Source: a phage. Taken from it: a stretch of DNA of 64,000 bases. The stretch is taken from assembly GCA_018015315.1 (NCBI GenBank), contig GCA_018015315.1_3629.1. One strand, given 5' to 3'. The position numbers were made by a program, and so were the translations under genes. Shown here in pieces: positions 15,783-59,880 of this stretch (within the stretch, counting starts at the first letter, position 1; each line of letters starts with the position of its first letter). The notes beneath the pieces were generated by a model that saw nothing but the letters and a program-made list of their open reading frames with translations, was not told the DNA's origin and ran no database searches.

Positions 15783-15859
15783 TGGTCTCCACGGAGTGAT
15801 TCGAACACTCGACCTCCTGATCCCAAATCAGGCGCTCTACCAAGCTGAGCTACGCGGAG
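15783..15859 (-). tRNA. tRNA-Pro (anticodon TGG)
   Basis: cloverleaf by eye: 7-bp acceptor stem (one G-T), anticodon loop TTTGGGA, T-loop TTCGAAT, encoded CCA. Confidence 0.8.
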
Positions 15860-15870
15860 TATTTACTATT

Positions 15871-15945
15871 TGGTGGCCCTGGGTGGAATTGAACCACCGT
15901 CTGGCGATTATGAGTCGCTTGCTTGAACCTTCCAGCTACAGGGCC
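15871..15945 (-). tRNA. tRNA-Met (anticodon CAT; initiator, elongator or Ile-lysidine not distinguishable)
   Basis: perfect 7-bp acceptor GGCCCTG/CAGGGCC, loop CTCATAA, T-loop TTCAATT, encoded CCA. Confidence 0.8.
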
Positions 15946-15946
15946 T

Positions 15947-16022
15947 TGGTGCTGATGGCAGGACTTGAACCTGCAACATATTGATTACAAATCAATTGCA
16001 CTACCAATTGTGCTACATCAGC
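15947..16022 (-). tRNA. tRNA-Thr (anticodon TGT)
   Basis: acceptor GCTGATG/CATCAGC, anticodon loop TTTGTAA, T-loop TTCAAGT, encoded CCA. Confidence 0.8.
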
Positions 16023-16029
16023 AAAAAGG

Positions 16030-16126
16030 TGCTAGGTGATGGAATCGAACCATCTATGTATTCAACGACTACCTCGTCTATTTTCAGGATTAAAAATCCT
16101 CGCCCTTGCCAAAGGGCTTACCTAGC
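16030..16126 (-). tRNA. atypical type-II tRNA-like gene (Leu-like scaffold, apparent anticodon TTT)
   Basis: perfect acceptor GCTAGGT/ACCTAGC, D-arm, perfect T-arm GATGG-TTCGATT-CCATC, discriminator A; anticodon hairpin AGGATTTTTAATCCT; about 30-nt variable region with GACGA/TCGTT hairpin; CCA not encoded. Confidence 0.45.
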
Positions 16127-16224
16127 TCAGTATGTTGACCATGTTGCTAGTCGGCGATGACGACTGTAACATTTGATAATCCGGTTCTGCTTCCGGCTTT
16201 CGCTTAATTACAAGGTCAACAATG

Positions 16225-16315
16225 TGGCAGAGGATAATGGAATCGAACCATCATCGAGTCATCCTCAACGGGACGGTTTTCAAGACCGCTTGAGCACCAT
16301 TGCTCCCTACCCTCT
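16225..16315 (-). tRNA. tRNA-Ser (anticodon TGA)
   Basis: type-II: acceptor AGAGGGT/ATCCTCT, anticodon loop CTTGAAA, about 20-nt variable arm, discriminator G, encoded CCA. Confidence 0.7.
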
Positions 16316-16432
16316 TTTATTATAAACAATACTGATAATGACACTGATTTTCGAGCAGTTAGTGACTAGTATAAACGACGATAAATACCAATGCCATTAT
16401 CTGTATGATTTATGCATCTAAAAATATAAATT

Positions 16433-16519
16433 TGGTGGGGAGTGGTGGAGTCGAACCACCCGAGTCGCAATGACAATAGATTTACAGTCTACACCGCTAC
16501 CTCTACGGGATAACTCCCC
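16433..16519 (-). tRNA. tRNA-Tyr (anticodon GTA)
   Basis: type-II: acceptor GGGGAGT/ACTCCCC, anticodon loop CTGTAAA, long variable arm, discriminator A, encoded CCA. Confidence 0.8.
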
Positions 16520-16523
16520 AATT

Positions 16524-16598
16524 TGGCACCCCGTACTGGACTCGAACCAGTGTCAACGGCTTAGAAGGCCGCTGCTTTATCCACTAAGCTAACAGGGC
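16524..16598 (-). tRNA. tRNA-Arg (anticodon TCT)
   Basis: anticodon stem-loop GCGGC-CTTCTAA-GCCGT, T-arm ACTGG-TTCGAGT-CCAGT, acceptor with two G-T pairs, encoded CCA. Confidence 0.75.
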
Positions 16599-17895: not shown

Positions 17896-18474
17896 TCAGC
17901 GTTCATAGTAAATCTTATTTAACATTACCTCATCCTTTGCAGAAAGGATATCTAGATATGCATCACCGAATCTACCTGCAACAACCTCTGCATGATACAT
18001 CACTTCGTTAATATCGTCAAGAGTGATAACTGGATGACCGTATCTCTCTGAGTATTGTCTCAGAGTGCGATGTAGGGAGTCATCATCATAGGCAGACTTT
18101 TTAATATCACAAACACGACGAATAGCCTTGATGTCGAAAAACCCTGTACGATACCAACCAAGAAAAAGGTTTCGTGCAGTGTCAACATCTACATCAATAC
18201 CATTAAGAACCTTATCTACAAGATAGCTGTCATCCTTTGGACCAGCTTCCTTAGTGCGAATGTAGTTGCCATCTTTTCCAGGTGACATCTCCTTCTCATC
18301 ACCAACCTGCATGCCATCATTTGGCGGTGTTAGCCACTTATCCGGATGCTTACGATCACGAGCGTTAGAATGATTACGCTGGAAACCAGGCTTCCACTTG
18401 AAAGTTTTCTCCATCTGTTCTTCATTCTGATAACGTTTTGCAATCTTTTCACGGTCATCTTTGCGTGAACCCAT
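17896..18474 (-). CDS. hypothetical protein
   Basis: 192 aa ORF; no recognisable motif. Confidence 0.45.
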   Translation of the reverse strand: MGSRKDDREKIAKRYQNEEQMEKTFKWKPGFQRNHSNARDRKHPDKWLTPPNDGMQVGDEKEMSPGKDGNYIRTKEAGPKDDSYLVDKVLNGIDVDVDTARNLFLGWYRTGFFDIKAIRRVCDIKKSAYDDDSLHRTLRQYSERYGHPVITLDDINEVMYHAEVVAGRFGDAYLDILSAKDEVMLNKIYYER

Positions 18475-18978
18475 AGCTGCCTCCTCTTCAAGTTATAGAA
18501 AAACTCACTGTATCACTTTGTAACGAGCTTTTCTATCAAACTGGTGCGATTGCATTACCTGGTATAGTTTATATAGCTGTGGAGCGATTTAGGGGCCTTC
18601 TTGTCAGTTTCCACACATAAACTTCATCCAAGCTCGCGCGGGAGACTCTCAACCGACTCCTTACGGCGCTGGCAAGCTTTCGTCGGTGGTCCACATCAGT
18701 GCTCGGCCTTTGGCCTGCGCTATCGCTTCGCTCCCACACATGTTAACAGACCTGCATGTATGCACTTCTGTTATTGTGTGCACCAAGGAGGCCCGGCATC
18801 TCGCCCATCGTAGGCGAGTGCCAATGAAGGGCCGACACTACCTATAGTAAGTAATAATTTTAAAACATGGTACTTAGGATCTAGTATATTCTACATAAGT
18901 TAAGTATATGTACTTAGTACCATAAGTACTAGATCTTTTATTTTTTATTATTTAGTTATTTTAGTTATATTCTTTATG

Positions 18979-19059
18979 TGTCCGTATCACGGACAGTTAG
19001 TGTCCGTATTACGGGCAGATGTGTCCGCGTGACGGACAGTAGTGTCCGTATCACGGACA
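18979..19059. repeat. four phased 17-bp palindromic sites TGTCCGT-nnn-ACGGACA
   Basis: sites at 18979-18995, 19001-19017, 19022-19038, 19043-19059; centre spacing 22/21/21 bp; flanked by AT-rich DNA. Confidence 0.8.
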
Positions 19060-19134
19060 GTTACTGACCTCTGTTCCAGAGCGAACATAAAACATACGAA
19101 TCCTTATAGTACAGATATTTAAGTTTTTACTGGT

Positions 19135-19485
19135 CTAACCAGTTGTTGACATTCGAATAACCTCTTCTGGTGGCAAAACTTTGGAAAATGTACATCTTTT
19201 ACCTCTCCCTTGTGTGGATATTTCAACCACTCCTGCACATTCTAAAGTTTTAACGCACGCTGCTGCTTTTGTTTTCTTTATCCCAACATCTGCTGCAATT
19301 TTCCTTGTGCTTGGTGTGAAGCGTGAATTTCCTCCAAGCTTATACCAGTTGTGCAGGTAGCAGTATACGATCTTGTCATATAAGTCAAGAACAACAACCT
19401 CCCCAGTTGTGTCATTCAAAACTTTTGACATAGACAGTATTTCAAGGGGGACTTTAAGATATAGCAGCTTATCCCCATCTTTCAT
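19135..19485 (-). CDS. putative winged-helix DNA-binding protein
   Basis: 116 aa; C-terminal segment resembles HTH/winged-helix; gene ends about 60 bp from palindrome array. Confidence 0.4.
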   Translation of the reverse strand: MKDGDKLLYLKVPLEILSMSKVLNDTTGEVVVLDLYDKIVYCYLHNWYKLGGNSRFTPSTRKIAADVGIKKTKAAACVKTLECAGVVEISTQGRGKRCTFSKVLPPEEVIRMSTTG

Positions 19486-19532
19486 ATCTCCTGATTCTCC
19501 TTGTGTGGCAATTTTCTTTAAAATAGCAGGGA

Positions 19533-20087
19533 TTACTCCCCGCTGTCAATAGCAAGACTCATTGCAATAAGGTATGCCTCTTCTAATGGTAAGAGTCTCC
19601 CCCACACATCCCAACCGACATCAAACTGCCTGCCAAACAACTGCTGTGTGGTTCCGTGAGCATGACCGAACAGTTGGACTGATCCGTGAGGCTTTCTGTT
19701 CCACTTTGCAAACTGGTAATGGCTCATACAGATCAAATTCTTGTTGTGGCGAAGCTCGTAATAATCTACAACCTCATGACCGAACTCTTTCATAATTCTG
19801 ACAGTCGTCCTTGTGTCATGGTTACCACGAACAAGAATAATATGTCCGTTCAACATATTTAGAACATCTGGGAGCAATTTGTTGATATTCTTATCATTAG
19901 TGCACGCAATATCTCCCAAGTGAAACACAGTGTCTGCAGGCGACACAACAGAGTTCCACTCGGCGATGATTCCCGCATTCATACTGTCAAGATTGTGATC
20001 ATACTGAGATCTGTGTTTTTGACATGAATCAAACTCCATGACCCGCTGGTGGAGAAAGTGTGTGTCGCTTGTTACAAAGTATTTCAT
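19533..20087 (-). CDS. calcineurin-like metallophosphoesterase
   Basis: motifs DTHF, GDIA, GNHD in order; start moved to ATG (MKYFVTSDTHF) with GAGGA RBS overlapping stop of kinase gene. Confidence 0.75.
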   Translation of the reverse strand: MKYFVTSDTHFLHQRVMEFDSCQKHRSQYDHNLDSMNAGIIAEWNSVVSPADTVFHLGDIACTNDKNINKLLPDVLNMLNGHIILVRGNHDTRTTVRIMKEFGHEVVDYYELRHNKNLICMSHYQFAKWNRKPHGSVQLFGHAHGTTQQLFGRQFDVGWDVWGRLLPLEEAYLIAMSLAIDSGE

Positions 20088-20094
20088 ACATTCC

Positions 20095-20505
20095 TCATTT
20101 AAGTTTAATGCAGTTTTTAAGCTGGCGTTCCATACGATCCACAACCTTGTCTGGAACATCATGAATGCTTTTATTACCGTGGCGGTTTTCAACCACGATC
20201 ACGGTATAACTATACCCATGACTGATTGCCATGTCAACATATTCCTGCACATGTTTTTCTTTTGTAAACGTATTACTTACCACGATACGGTCGTATCCCA
20301 TACGCATCATATCTTCTACGTTATCTTTGCACCATTTTGCTGCGAGTGTTACTTTACTTGCATCCCAGTTGTAATTGCCGTCATCGTCATACCAGAACAT
20401 ATCGTTCTCAAAATGTGGATACAGACCTTCTAAAGATAGCGCATTTGCCAGTGTTGATTTGCCAGACCCTGGCAGACCACGCACGATATATAGCATTTTA
20501 GACAT
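20095..20505 (-). CDS. P-loop kinase (polynucleotide-kinase-like)
   Basis: Walker A GLPGSGKST at N-terminus, about 135 aa; start at ATG (MSKMLYIV) with GGAGG RBS. Confidence 0.6.
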   Translation of the reverse strand: MSKMLYIVRGLPGSGKSTLANALSLEGLYPHFENDMFWYDDDGNYNWDASKVTLAAKWCKDNVEDMMRMGYDRIVVSNTFTKEKHVQEYVDMAISHGYSYTVIVVENRHGNKSIHDVPDKVVDRMERQLKNCIKLK

Positions 20506-20533
20506 AGCAATCCTCCGTTTTAATTTTAATGAT

Positions 20534-20562
20534 AGTATACCTAACTGTTTTGTTAATTTCAA
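20534..20562 (-). promoter_or_regulatory. sigma70-like promoter for kinase/phosphoesterase operon
   Basis: minus-strand TTGAAA-17 bp-TATACT upstream of RBS. Confidence 0.45.
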
Positions 20563-20623
20563 GTGTTGACACTAGGTTATTTGTGTGGCAGGATAGACTG
20601 ACAAAATGACAAATGAGGAACGT

Positions 20624-21541
20624 ATGATGAAGTATTTTAATGCAGATGACCTAGTAGACAAAGGTCTTGTAACCAGTCGGTATTATCCAGATCTTGGATT
20701 AAAGATCTATAAATATGCCAGAAAAGTATTCTACAACAATCTGTGGCATTTGTCTCCGCGTTTACTGGAGTGCCGAGGTATTGTTGTTGGCAATGAGGGG
20801 AATGTTGTGGCATGGCCTTTCACAAAAGTATTCAACTTAGGAGAAAACTCCACCAACCTACCGGACAGTAAACTTGTTACTGCGGTAGAGAAAAAGAACG
20901 GATTCCTCGGTGTGGTATCATCTCATAAAGGTGAACTATTGTTCTCAACAACCGGGTCTCTTGATTCTCCATATTGTAACCTTGCAAAGGAAACCATCCA
21001 AGAGCAATGTGGTAATTTAGATCTTATCAAGAAGGTTATGGGCAATGAAAACATGACATTCATGTTTGAAATTTGTCACCCTTCAGATCCGCATATTGTT
21101 CAAGAAGACCATGGCGCATATTTGATAGGTTGCAGATATAATGATTCTGGAATAATGCTACCAGAAGCAGCTTTAGATGGGATTGCCAAATACCTTGGTG
21201 CAAAACGTCCTCACACTGTGCGTGAAATCCCGTTCAGCTATGCAAAAGAATTAGCTGCAGAAACAAGGGGCGAAGGGTATATGATCCGTAAGCCTTACTA
21301 CCCTTATGACCTGCAGCTGAAGATCAAGTCTCCATACTATTTGGCACGGAAGGCCGTAATGAGAGGTAAAGCATGGAAGATTTGGGATGACGATATTTTT
21401 AAACGTGTTGACGAGGAGTTTTACGGTATGGTAAAATTTATTCGTAGCAACTATACAGAAGATGTGTGGAATTGCTTATTAGAGCAGGAGCGTCGCGAGA
21501 TACTGGACTGCTATTTCCACAACGAGGACTACATGAAATGA
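20624..21541 (+). CDS. RNA-ligase-like nucleotidyltransferase
   Basis: ligase motifs: I EKKNGF, III FMFEI, IV EGYMIRK, V LKIKSP; start taken at ATG 20624 after GAGGA (track start 20606). Confidence 0.5.
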   Translation: MMKYFNADDLVDKGLVTSRYYPDLGLKIYKYARKVFYNNLWHLSPRLLECRGIVVGNEGNVVAWPFTKVFNLGENSTNLPDSKLVTAVEKKNGFLGVVSSHKGELLFSTTGSLDSPYCNLAKETIQEQCGNLDLIKKVMGNENMTFMFEICHPSDPHIVQEDHGAYLIGCRYNDSGIMLPEAALDGIAKYLGAKRPHTVREIPFSYAKELAAETRGEGYMIRKPYYPYDLQLKIKSPYYLARKAVMRGKAWKIWDDDIFKRVDEEFYGMVKFIRSNYTEDVWNCLLEQERREILDCYFHNEDYMK

Positions 21542-21888
21542 AGAAGTGGATTGTGTGGCTTGATGATTTTAGAGATCCGTCAGATTATGGACTCCCAGAC
21601 GCTCTGTGGCTAAAGAATTCTTCTGAATTTATGGATTTTCTTAATGATAAGAGAAAGCTCTACAGACGCGTATCTGAATGGTATTTTGACAATGATCTAG
21701 GTGAAGTTCTTGAAGGGTACGACTGCTTCTCTGCGCTAGAGGAGAAACTTGTATTCGGAAAGCCACCACTTATTGACAACGTGATTATTTTCGTGCATAC
21801 TTCTAATCCATCGGCAGCTCGTAAATTTATGCTTGCTGCTGACTCATTCAAGAAGTTTGGAATAGAGATCAAACAAAACATCTACTGA
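21538..21888 (+). CDS. hypothetical protein coupled to Sir2-like gene
   Basis: 116 aa; ATG overlaps ligase stop (ATGA); ends 9 bp before Sir2-like start. Confidence 0.4.
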   Translation: MKKWIVWLDDFRDPSDYGLPDALWLKNSSEFMDFLNDKRKLYRRVSEWYFDNDLGEVLEGYDCFSALEEKLVFGKPPLIDNVIIFVHTSNPSAARKFMLAADSFKKFGIEIKQNIY

Positions 21889-21896
21889 GGACACTT

Positions 21897-22658
21897 ATGC
21901 GACGACTGATTATTATCTCCGGTGCTGGTTTGAGCGCTGAATCTGGTATTCCCACTTTCCGATCTGGTAGCACTGCAATGTGGGAGAATTTCAGCATCGA
22001 TGAGGTGTGCAACATCCACACCTTTGCCAAGAACTACTATAAGGTGCATGACTTTTACAATGCACGTCGTGTAGCTCTGGGCAGTGTTGATCCTAACCTT
22101 GCACATCTTCGGATCGCTGAGTGGTATTCCCGCTGGTCTGGTCGTGTGATCAACCTTACCACCAATGTAGATGATTTGCTGGAGCGTGCTGGTGTAAAAC
22201 ATGAAGATATTTTACATGTCCACGGGTATTTGCCTGAAATCACCTACGAAGATGCTGAAGGTAATGATGTAATTAAAAATATCGGATACACGGAGGTAGA
22301 TACAGGCAAGTATACCTGGGTTAAGCCCAATGTAGTGTTCTTCGGTGAGGTTGCTCCTAAGTATACAGACATGTATGACCTGTTGACATCTCTCACAAGC
22401 AATGATATGGTGATCCTAGTAGGTTGTTCTAACACAGTTATTAATTTTAACTGGGAATTGTTTCCTGCTACTTGTAAAGGCACAAAACTGCTGATTGTAA
22501 ACAAGTATGACTCGCAGAGTGCAGATGGAAGTGGCATTTCACGTAGCGACCTTTATCAATATGAGGATCGCGGGATCCCTGTATGGTTTAACGGTGCTGT
22601 TGACGCTTTCTCTGATAAAGCATTTATTGAAACTGTAGAAAACTTTATGGAACTTTAA
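21897..22658 (+). CDS. Sir2-family protein (no zinc ribbon)
   Basis: GAGLSAESGIPTFRS, TTNVDDL, catalytic HG, VVFFGE motifs; no CxxC pairs. Confidence 0.75.
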   Translation: MRRLIIISGAGLSAESGIPTFRSGSTAMWENFSIDEVCNIHTFAKNYYKVHDFYNARRVALGSVDPNLAHLRIAEWYSRWSGRVINLTTNVDDLLERAGVKHEDILHVHGYLPEITYEDAEGNDVIKNIGYTEVDTGKYTWVKPNVVFFGEVAPKYTDMYDLLTSLTSNDMVILVGCSNTVINFNWELFPATCKGTKLLIVNKYDSQSADGSGISRSDLYQYEDRGIPVWFNGAVDAFSDKAFIETVENFMEL

Positions 22659-57333: not shown

Positions 57334-57683
57334 CACACAATTAGCTGCCAGGCTAAAGTGCTGGAAGCACCTATAACACATCTTTCAACTAAATTTCCTA
57401 CCACCACAATCACTTACCTCCCACACATGACTGTTTGCTTGTTTAGTGAGCAGTCATGCCTTGACATTCTTGCCTATCCTGATAAAATTAAGTTCTTCTC
57501 TTTTCTTTTACCGAGTAATTCGGGTTTTCTGTTCTCTTCGGTTTGAAGGGGTATGGAGATACACCTGAGTGAACAGGGTGAACAACCGAACATTTGGCTA
57601 TGGCATTAGCATGGCGAAGCGGACGGGTGACGAAAGAGGGGCCGGAGGACACCAGTCACTGCCATATGGTATATGGGTGATAA

Positions 57684-58224
57684 CCTGAAGAGTCTGAATA
57701 AGTGTTTAAGTACCAGTCAGAGGAAAAGGTGAATGGTAGCCGAAGGGGGAGGGGGGTTTCTTGTATCTTTAATTTGTATATTATGTATACACTTGTAAAC
57801 CAATCTCATTTGAATTTGTTTACCACACAAAGTGGATAGAGACAAATATTACCTATTAAACTTGAATTATTTATAGAAAATACCACAACACTACTTAAGT
57901 CTTTGATTTTACACACAAATCCTGCAGATATTCACCCTCCATATTTAACATACTTGTAACATATTCCATACTCTACCTGCCCGATCAATTCACCCAACTA
58001 CATCCCCATATTTTCCCTGTCTGTACTACCCCTGCCCCGCCGGGAGTCCCGTCATATCTGGCTTTCCAGCAAATATCACACCCACAAATATCATTGCCTG
58101 AAGAGGGTTTCATCCCATAGTACATGCCTTACCTGAAGAGCGCTTCATATACCCCGTAAATTTTTTAATTGACACCCTCCCCGCCGCCGGAGGGGGTTGG
58201 CTTTTCCCACACAGACCTGAAGAG
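57684..58224 (+). repeat. dispersed direct repeat CCTGAAGAG (4 copies)
   Basis: exact 9-mers at 57684, 58097, 58132, 58216 in non-coding DNA. Confidence 0.7.
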
Positions 58225-58785
58225 CCAGCCAGAAATATCTGAACAGGTCCAGCTATGCCACGATTTTGTGCTTGTCCTACAGGAGTGCTTCCCTGTCAGG
58301 AGCCGGTAGCGACTGGAGTGCTGCCAGGCGGACGAAATGGGAATACTTCTCATTCTTATAACAATTCTCAAATATCGAGGCAGTGAGACAAATTAATAGG
58401 CTTTGCCGTTCACACAATGGCACAACATTTGCAGCCTATCTTGTGGGGGGTGAATGAGAATACCTATCATTGCGAGAATAGTTATCATTACGGGCAATTT
58501 AACATAATACCCATTATGCGCACCACTGGCGATATATACAGGGGTTAATAACATGGTGGACTGTTTACGCACATTACAATTGCATTACTTATTATTTGTG
58601 TGGGATATAGTTAGCCACCAACAGATTGCATAATAACCTGCAGACTTCCAGCCGTCCAGACGCCTAAGCGCCTACACAATAAGGATTATACATACACAAC
58701 TGAATGTAAACAGGGCCGCAAAAATGCTACCATACAAGATTGTAAATTTTTCATGCAGCACTTGACAAAGAGGAGAAAAACTTGT

Positions 58786-58875
58786 CTGACATACTGGTGA
58801 CATAATATGACACTTTAGACACAATAGTGACATACTGGACACGATATGACACACTGGGCATAATTGACATACCTG
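58786..58875 (+). repeat. iteron-like array of (A/T)GACA(C/T)A motifs at 10-11 bp spacing
   Basis: about 8 copies, including TGACATACTGG twice and TGACACACTGG once. Confidence 0.7.
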
Positions 58876-58983
58876 ACTGTTTACGCTGTCACTATTCACT
58901 CGCTTACATGCTTAATAGACTACATGACTAATAGTTTACATAGCTAACTGTTCACGTATAGATTGTTTACTTAAAAATGATAA

Positions 58984-59264
58984 GCCATGCCATTCGTTTG
59001 CATGATAAAGATTAGCAAGTTAATAATCTTTCACTGGCTATGCCAGGTGACCTTTTGTCACCTCTTCGGGTGTTTCTATGACATAATATAAAAGCAGGGC
59101 AACTATTAGCAGATCTATAGTTGCCTTGCTTGTTATGTCATGATTAACTAAATACAAGGCAACTATGATCTGATTAATAGATTGCAGACAAACTATCACG
59201 GGGGTGATGGTTACTGCTTTTATATTATGTCGCGACTCCGTCGCGCCATGCCATTCGTTTGCAT
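58984..59264 (+). repeat. 20-bp perfect direct repeat GCCATGCCATTCGTTTGCAT (2 copies)
   Basis: copies at 58984-59003 and 59245-59264. Confidence 0.8.
59098..59125. repeat. palindrome GGCAACTAT-10 bp-ATAGTTGCC
   Basis: 9-bp inverted repeat; further half-site copies near 59160 and 59265. Confidence 0.75.
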
Positions 59265-59880
59265 AGTTGCCTTATTGTTACAGATAAAATAATTATATTG
59301 TTAATTATTTCTTATCTTTCTCTTAGTCATCTAATGATTCCAGTCAGTATAGTAATGTACAGTAAACATTAGACGACTAAAGATTTATCTGCTTATAATA
59401 ACTTACCGTGACAATTCCGGACTGTTTACGAAAAATGTTGACACCTGAGCTGATTTATGTTATGCAATTTACACGAATAATTATTTTATGCAGGTATTGA
59501 CTATTACGTTATTCTATGGTCGGAATAAATACTTAGCGGACTATAGAATGGTGACGCTACGTGAATTCTGGAATTTAGTGGCTATAGTTATACCCGATTT
59601 TTCACGTAGAACACGCTTTTGTGGTTATGTAAGTGTATGACTTATAAAGATTTTTAGTTGTTGACAAGGCACTGAAGATATGCATCAGGTTAAATTTTGT
59701 GCAATAGCTGCATTACGTGCAATTTTGGAAGGAAAAACGTGTAAAAATGGCCCTGCTACCACACAATGAAAGATTATGCAATAGCTATTTTACATGTATA
59801 TTTGTACAGTGTGTGGGATTGATGGCTAGTCAATTATTCCACTTGCCAGGCTGGGCCGTTTGTGGTAGGAGAAATACAGA

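Follow-up and report, generated by a model that had tools for sequence, protein, structure and literature searches.

The 64,000-nucleotide stretch of phage DNA analysed here (the window) contains a compact locus in which, read along the minus strand, the gene gp075 is followed by a spacer, an array of four palindromes, a 124-bp AT-rich segment, a GC-rich element and the next gene of the same strand. The gene (19135..19485, minus strand; gp075 or ORF 79 of phage rV5) was taken from the list of open reading frames. It encodes a winged-helix protein of 116 amino acids, which we propose to be an origin-binding mini-initiator on the basis of PHROG, Pfam, AlphaFold2 and Foldseek comparisons. A promoter-like site of the sigma-70 type (19520..19549, minus strand; TTGACA-18-TATTTT with an extended TG) was found by scanning and coincides in position with “P76” of the rV5 record. 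Transcription from this site (19549-19520) would cross gp075 and then the array, and no intrinsic terminator was predicted on the way, the region 18300-19700 being without terminator-like sites. A spacer of 75 bp (19060..19134), variable in an alignment of 13 Vequintavirus loci, separates the stop codon from the first palindrome; an earlier note, made from the sequence alone, was thus right to place the array beside the 3′ end of gp075, whereas its distance of about 60 bp was too short.

Counted from the gene, iteron 1 (TGTCCGTATCACGGACA) is located at 19043..19059, iteron 2 (TGTCCGCGTGACGGACA) at 19022..19038, iteron 3 (TGTCCGTATTACGGGCA) at 19001..19017 and iteron 4 (TGTCCGTATCACGGACA), beside the AT-rich segment, at 18979..18995. 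All four were recovered by pattern search and alignment, and iterons 1, 2 and 4 also as repeats. In the pattern search of the window with TGTCCGT-N3-ACGGACA, the copies starting at 18979, 19001, 19022 and 19043 show 0, 1, 1 and 0 mismatches. The four palindromes described earlier are therefore confirmed, but two copies of the 7+7 palindrome deviate and not one; only for the 6+6 core TGTCCG-N5-CGGACA is the mismatch confined to a single copy, copy 2 in coordinate order (iteron 3), in which one half-site reads TGCCCG on the other strand. By chance, a mean of 0.08 matches with up to two mismatches is expected, and 0 of 100 shuffles reached five. The array is real and non-random. The start-to-start spacing of 22, 21 and 21 bp bears out the claimed distance of about two helical turns, and Tandem Repeats Finder reports a period of 21 with 4.0 copies; a few records carry the array as an unnamed “repeat_region” from this program.

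The AT-rich segment (18855..18978, ~79% A+T, two GATC sites) is a proposed DNA-unwinding element, judged by its duplex stability and conservation. Its interleaved inverted repeats, which had also been noticed before, are real, with arms at 18867-18877/18913-18923 and 18878-18886/18927-18935, and the A+T content over 18858-18978 is 79%. In the 60 bp after the array 83% of the bases are A or T, compared with 63% in the 60 bp before it. Between the AT-rich segment and the next gene lies a GC-rich (~55%), conserved non-coding element of 260 nt (18590-18850, minus strand). This element is found in Vequintavirus only, folds better than shuffles on both strands (z −2.6) and is annotated as tiny hypothetical ORFs in some records; RNAalifold with 11 sequences gave 68 pairs and 0 compensatory changes, the few one-sided changes being G-U-compatible on the minus strand. 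Rfam searches at gathering and E-value thresholds assigned nothing to the array or to the GC-rich element; the sole hit, rli43, reached 22.8 bits against a gathering score of 100 and was discarded as a chance match. The next same-strand genes past the array occupy 17896-18474 and beyond. A consensus scan, whose reach does not extend to phage-specific promoters, found neither a sigma-70-like promoter nor a terminator on either strand of 18475-19134.

The window belongs to a Vequintavirus. Its 1.1 kb around the array match 119 phage records with 90-99.6% identity, every one an rV5-like myophage of E. coli from this genus, and the locus is present in 119 of these 119 related records. A window position x corresponds to rV5 position x + 46,173. 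Eighteen GenBank records named “Campylobacter phage” (MG0656xx, e.g. MG065654; host Campylobacter jejuni) match this E. coli phage locus with up to 99.6% identity and encode a gp075 protein that is 98-100% identical; mislabelling or contamination is likely. The genome of phage rV5 is reported to be circularly permuted and to encode a family-A DNA polymerase, a PIF1-like helicase and a primase-helicase of the T7-gp4 type (PMC3606486). Its origin was sought by AT and GC skew, which changed only where the direction of transcription switches, so that the origin was not located; one such switch, at 66,675-66,725, is 1.5 kb away from the array (PMC3606486). Our literature searches retrieved no paper on iterons, the origin or the transcriptome of Vequintavirus and no relevant report of the iteron sequence. 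In another part of the window, seven tRNA genes are clustered at 15783-16598, one of them with an odd 4-base anticodon call (16028-16126), and RNA-repair-type genes near this cluster (19533-22658) encode a metallophosphoesterase, an AAA_33 kinase-like ATPase, an Rnl1-type RNA ligase and a Sir2-like protein.

Conservation and genomic context of the array

The conservation alignment comprised 13 Vequintavirus loci, of which 12 are distinct. Variable columns account for 8.6% of the array and 7.3% of the AT-rich segment, compared with 17% of the gp075 gene, 20% of the other non-coding stretch before the next gene, 26% of the GC-rich element and 33% of the spacer. Taken together, the array and the AT-rich segment have significantly fewer variable columns than the gene (Fisher p 0.002) and also fewer than the remaining non-coding DNA (p 2e-8). 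Variable positions in the array number 2 of 48 in the half-sites, 4 of 20 in the central N5 and 1 of 13 between the sites, a contrast that is only a trend (p 0.11). Both variable half-site positions are a T/C exchange at half-site position 3, a polymorphism that recurs in relatives, among which the conserved core is TG(T/C)CCG-N5-CGGACA. In a metagenomic relative with 71% protein identity (L096) the spacer has wholly diverged, yet the palindrome is kept at the same place, where the sequence reads TGTCCGTCACACGGACA, four bases, TGTC and then the contig end.

This contig and two other independent metagenome contigs bearing gp075 (L100, L101), one of the three being 44 kb long, end inside the array or at most 12 bp beyond it. 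Because the genome is circularly permuted, we do not read these contig ends as physical genome ends; they are most likely assembly breaks at the repeat or at AT-rich DNA.

For the genome-wide view we scanned the complete 135.5-kb genome of phage phiWec189, which is 99.5% identical over the locus. Core sites with at most one mismatch occur four times in this genome, all inside the array, and sites with two mismatches occur three more times, which is the chance level (3.2 ± 1.7 expected). By nearest-neighbour energy, the AT-rich segment is the least stable duplex of the phiWec189 genome at segment lengths of 100 and 150 bp (−159.5 kcal/mol at 150 bp, compared with −171.0 for the runner-up); it also ranks as least stable in the 64-kb window, there at 60, 100 and 150 bp. 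The global minimum of the cumulative GC skew of phiWec189 is at ~85.0 kb and the array at 83.95 kb; this minimum is confounded by a divergent transcription switch at 85.5 kb, and a switch of transcription direction alone can produce a skew minimum (PMC3606486).

Ranks two and three for low duplex stability in the window go to segments of a different region, 57.5-59.7 kb. There, at 57550-59700, two transcription units converge in ~2.1 kb with few short unannotated ORFs, the “non-coding” box of the rV5 paper. Its repeats include a 19-bp unit in 3.7 copies (58799-58869), a 16-bp unit in 2.7 copies (58904-58947), GACTGTTTACG four times and CATGCCATTCGTTTGCAT twice. This region is possibly a second or alternative origin, a packaging region or a regulatory region.

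Relationships of gp075

Database records label gp075 either “putative transcriptional regulator” (many) or “replication initiation protein” (RefSeq and pharokka-style annotations). PHROG 12838, named “replication initiation protein”, matches it at 2.5e-80, and weaker matches are obtained to PHROGs 8102, 428, 270, 678, 391 and 8540, all named replication initiation or O-like. Pfam scores stay slightly below the cut-offs for DUF6945 (PF22182; 27.1 vs 28) and HTH_36 (PF13730; 24.5 vs 25), and a cluster representative with 98% identity is precomputed as PF13730. Among the Pfam hits of gp075 Phage_rep_O (PF04492) is absent even at E values up to 10, and RepA_N of Pfam gives no sequence match.

An AlphaFold2 model calculated from a 21-sequence alignment reached a pLDDT of 81 and a pTM of 0.79, while an input of 5 near-identical sequences gave an unusable pLDDT of 47. 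The model consists of a β-hairpin, helices H1, H2 and H3 and a wing, and this order, H-H-H-strand-strand, agrees with the winged helix that the earlier note had assigned to the product of 19135-19485. The protein is a single domain, which ends at residue 116 just past the wing and is without a C-terminal domain for the recruitment of a helicase loader.

Closest to gp075 in both sequence and structure is 4RO3 (DUF6945), an N-terminal domain from Vibrio cholerae with no assigned function, with E values of 1.4e-6 in phmmer, 9.6e-13 with the family profile and 3e-6 in Foldseek (TM 0.63). 4RO3 is therefore silent on the mechanism of gp075. In the Foldseek search of the PDB, 4RO3 is followed by the N-terminal domains of RepA_N initiators (4PQL, 4PT7, 5KBJ; ~114 columns, E 3e-4 to 1e-3, TM ~0.55), and only then by CodY, ArsR, LexA and MarR-type regulators, for which 70-80 residues are aligned. 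In a PDB profile search, SlyA/MarR-type regulators appear at E ~2e-5, behind 4RO3.

Direct sequence searches with gp075 retrieved almost nothing outside Vequintavirus. A profile search added DUF6945/HTH_36 homologues of 180-217 amino acids from other phage contigs, which entered the alignment for the AlphaFold2 model; these are the closest by sequence outside the genus and have no comparable arrays nearby. Palindromes of other sequence are found beside small genes in two further relatives. A Mydovirus relative (L007, 2006-2045) encodes a 105-aa DUF6945 homologue of gp075 (score 28.7 for DUF6945) beside TGCTCAA-T-TTGAGCA and AT-rich, GATC-rich intergenic DNA. In a Seunavirus-like relative (L008, 2151-2254), a 120-aa protein with no Pfam hit and marginal similarity to gp075 is encoded beside two to three copies of ATTCCC-N4-GGGAAT, 24 bp apart. 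In both, the palindromes are situated just upstream of the small gene, between the gene and AT-rich, GATC-rich intergenic DNA, and the gene order is unlike that of Vequintavirus. The intergenic regions of these two relatives are homologous to each other; homology of the AT-rich segment to them was considered and rejected, the alignment scores being within the range of shuffles.

The same palindrome in other viruses and bacteria

When IMG/VR was scanned for the core palindrome in one and a half copies, 43 contigs were obtained; they are all unrelated to the window, and their G+C contents are 36-70%. About 20 of the 43 have a single site plus a half-site, which by our own estimate is roughly what chance yields for 18 specified bases in this amount of sequence. 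The other 23 carry arrays of 3-7 copies with a spacing of 20-25 bp, mostly 22. These arrays are located inside ORFs of 130-420 amino acids, 5-20 codons past an N-terminal winged helix. Since the frame in which the arrays are read differs among lineages, they are DNA elements and not a peptide repeat. When the lineages from a scan of bacterial genomes are included, 11 of 14 distinct array-bearing gene lineages match PHROGs with the name “replication initiation O-like” or “replication initiation protein” (270, 391, 678, 428, 8540, 8102, 345). The DNA that follows the array is AT-enriched: in 15 such genes the A+T content of the 60 bp past it averages 55%, above the 43% of the contig (p 0.0003) and the 44% of the DNA before the array (p 0.002), and 13 of the 15 show the same polarity as the window.

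The relationship of the encoded proteins to gp075 is distant. When profiles of the gp075 family and of eight such N-terminal domains were compared by hhalign, the probability was 69% (E 4e-5) over the helix-turn-helix core. With phmmer against 1,369 ORFs near arrays, the nine best matches of gp075 were array-bearing ORFs of one lineage, each of them marginal (E 0.05-0.15). The recognition helix of gp075 reads KKTKAAA, as against the S-R-S-T-V type of most array-bearing O-like proteins; an array-bearing protein of Parachlamydiaceae has a similar “KTKA” helix, yet BLASTP gave no alignment with gp075. Initiators that are less than 30% identical and differ in their recognition helices nevertheless share one half-site. 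The architecture itself is general and not tied to one iteron sequence: in the cultured Vibrio phage D77, the winged helix of the O-like gene is immediately followed by GTGACA-N3-TGTCAC in three copies with a spacing of 21-24 bp.

TGTCCG-N5-CGGACA arrays of 2-5 copies are also present in Myxococcota and Burkholderiales assemblies (L054, L056, L062, L065, L067, L076, L079 and others). Their spacing is mostly 20-21 bp, in many exactly 20 bp, and they are often intergenic with no winged-helix ORF detected alongside. They form a second, unexplained context of the same sequence word.

A candidate replication origin and its relation to known systems

We propose that the locus is the vegetative replication origin of rV5-like phages, a lambda-type iteron origin with an initiator reduced to its DNA-binding domain and with the iterons outside the gene. 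We put the probability of this reading, which is based on sequence comparison, at roughly 60%. It is suggested by the occurrence of the same module in the same order and polarity, namely a winged helix, phased palindromic iterons and an AT-rich tract. The more modest claim that gp075 binds to the array is quite likely. The earlier note had considered an operator-, centromere- or origin-type array; the origin part of this proposal is favoured by the comparative and genome-wide evidence. Against it count the absence of comparable arrays near the closest homologues outside the genus, the deviating recognition helix of gp075, its missing C-terminal domain, the Pfam scores slightly below the cut-offs, the confounded skew minimum, the alternative candidate at 57.5-59.7 kb and the fact that winged helices are just as characteristic of transcription factors.

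We infer the following course from gp075 binding at the array to unwinding, loading of the helicase and origin activity. gp075 would correspond to the N-terminal, DNA-binding part of an initiator of the O-like or RepA_N-like kind, and a gp075 dimer probably binds each of the four dyad-symmetric TG(T/C)CCG-N5-CGGACA sites, which face one side of the helix because they are two helical turns apart. The nucleoprotein complex formed on the array could put strain on the DNA and so open the AT-rich segment of 120 bp next to it, and read-through transcription of the array from the promoter upstream of gp075 may help this opening. As gp075 is without a helicase-loader-recruiting domain, we suggest, as pure conjecture, that the T7-gp4-like primase-helicase of the phage loads by itself on the opened DNA; loading without such a domain is plausible because the phage has a primase-helicase of the T7-gp4 type.

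A transcriptional role of the array would be the principal alternative. In this case, gp075 would be a transcription factor that acts on the four sites as an operator or roadblock, controlling early-promoter read-through into 17896-18474 and beyond or a promoter within the AT-rich segment that has escaped recognition. A winged-helix protein of this size would be a typical repressor, and both the SlyA/MarR-type matches behind 4RO3 and the name “putative transcriptional regulator” in many GenBank records agree with such a function, as does the position of the array between gp075 and the next same-strand genes. The palindromes of the Seunavirus-like and Mydovirus relatives are found where one expects the promoter of the small gene, an arrangement that would suit autoregulation in those phages. 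The array in the window, by contrast, is 460 bp away from gp075's own promoter and is therefore not an autoregulatory operator. The operator suggested by the earlier note also finds no promoter-like site at the array, since the consensus scan detected neither a sigma-70-like promoter nor a terminator on both strands of 18475-19134, and no second site exists in the phiWec189 genome. Moreover, elsewhere the same arrays are located inside initiator genes and not at promoters, and an operator leaves the flanking least stable duplex of the genome unexplained. We regard a transcriptional role as unlikely.

Much less probable is a function at the RNA level, in which the palindromes would fold into four stem-loops in the 3′ UTR of the gp075 transcript and serve its stabilisation, processing or termination. 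The array is probably transcribed, as no terminator is predicted between gp075 and the array, and the fold of the transcribed strand is much more stable than that of shuffles (z −5.2), but this strong fold is a consequence of the palindromes themselves. U-tracts are missing and the stem-loops do not qualify as intrinsic terminators (18300-19700), one stem has a C-A mismatch in most genomes, and changes of the inner pair (positions 7/11) in SYGMH1 and L101 are uncompensated. The conserved 6-bp half-sites with a free central 5 bp show the pattern of a protein-binding site, and other phages read the same palindromes as codons, in different frames, inside initiator genes.

It is similarly improbable that the locus stems from a lambdoid replication module acquired by an ancestor and is now an inactive relic. 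The truncation of the initiator relative to O-like proteins and the confinement of the gp075 family to (nearly) one genus would fit a relic, but in the 13 genomes no part of the locus is better conserved than the array and the AT-rich segment, the palindrome persists in the lineage with 71% protein identity, and all 119 related records have the locus. Least probable of all is a packaging (pac) recognition site or partition centromere: although phased repeats with small winged-helix proteins bound to them are found at pac and par sites, the gene of the large terminase follows ~4.3 kb downstream on the same strand and three metagenome contigs end in or just after the array, the genome is reported to be circularly permuted (PMC3606486), the array is not beside the terminase genes, contig ends are expected as assembly breaks at a tandem repeat with very AT-rich DNA, the comparative link of the array is to initiators, and the centromere of the earlier note has nothing in its favour, the phage being virulent and no partition genes being annotated near the locus (naam, MiataMamis) or anywhere in the sparsely annotated genome of phiWec189.

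If the origin reading is correct, it would bear on replication initiation in a large virulent phage with a T7-like primase-helicase. The origin of Vequintavirus has so far been unmapped, and the candidate described here comprises ~650 bp with the gene, four sites and an unwinding element. Vequintavirus phages are common typing and therapy-candidate phages for E. coli O157, with 119 near-identical genomes in the phage collection, and a candidate origin would be useful for phage engineering and for phage-dependent replicons. We speculate further, with the odds somewhat against it, that rV5-like phages start replication with a winged-helix-only initiator on iterons outside its gene, with opening and helicase loading uncoupled and the primase-helicase loading itself, and that TGTCCG-N5-CGGACA is a widely shared iteron word of very divergent O-like initiators in phages whose hosts belong to different phyla. 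If true, a shared word would point to a conserved recognition mode or to repeated exchange of a cassette of winged helix and iterons. One iteron sequence across unrelated initiator genes offers a handle on how such winged helices read DNA.

Among known systems, the origin of phage lambda is the model for the proposed reading. It has four dyad-symmetric iterons and an AT-rich tract in the middle of gene O, is bound by O to form the O-some and is transcriptionally activated (PMC7466680). Lambda and lambdoid/Stx origins share with the window four dyad-symmetric iterons of 17-19 bp that are about two helical turns apart (PMC7466680). In both, the iterons come directly behind the DNA coding for the N-terminal DNA-binding domain of the initiator and are followed by the AT-rich unwinding tract, and transcription from an upstream promoter, in the window a promoter-like site, crosses the origin. 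Unlike the situation in lambda, gp075 stops 75 bp before the iterons, which are thus outside the reading frame. The 116-aa gp075 is a winged helix only and, in contrast to O, has neither a C-terminal domain binding P or a helicase loader nor a match to Phage_rep_O. The iteron sequence is another one, and the phage is a 136-kb virulent myovirus with its own primase-helicase.

The O-like initiator genes with TGTCCG-N5-CGGACA arrays (PHROGs 270, 391, 678, 428 and 8540; e.g. loci L010, L022, L030, L046, L060, L064) have a half-site identical to that of the window. They also resemble it in that the array follows directly behind a winged helix of the HTH_36 type, with AT-enriched DNA beyond. They differ from gp075 in that the array lies inside a gene of 225-420 amino acids that continues into a C-terminal domain, and the sequence similarity of their winged helices to gp075 is marginal.

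The RepA_N plasmid initiators (4PQL, 4PT7 and 5KBJ, representing the N-terminal domain and its DNA complex) are the best functionally characterised structural match to gp075. The match spans ~114 of the 116 residues, including the N-terminal extension before the winged helix, whereas sequence identity is ~23% and the phmmer match is weak (E 1.2). RepA_N plasmid origins are located inside the rep gene, and RepA_N proteins have, unlike gp075, a C-terminal domain, which contacts host replication proteins.

Iteron plasmids of the RepA/π/RepE type likewise combine phased repeats of 17-22 bp beside an AT-rich unwinding element with the gene of a winged-helix initiator. Their iterons are direct repeats, each recognised by a monomer that has two winged-helix domains, whereas the sites in the window are palindromic and gp075 has a single winged helix.
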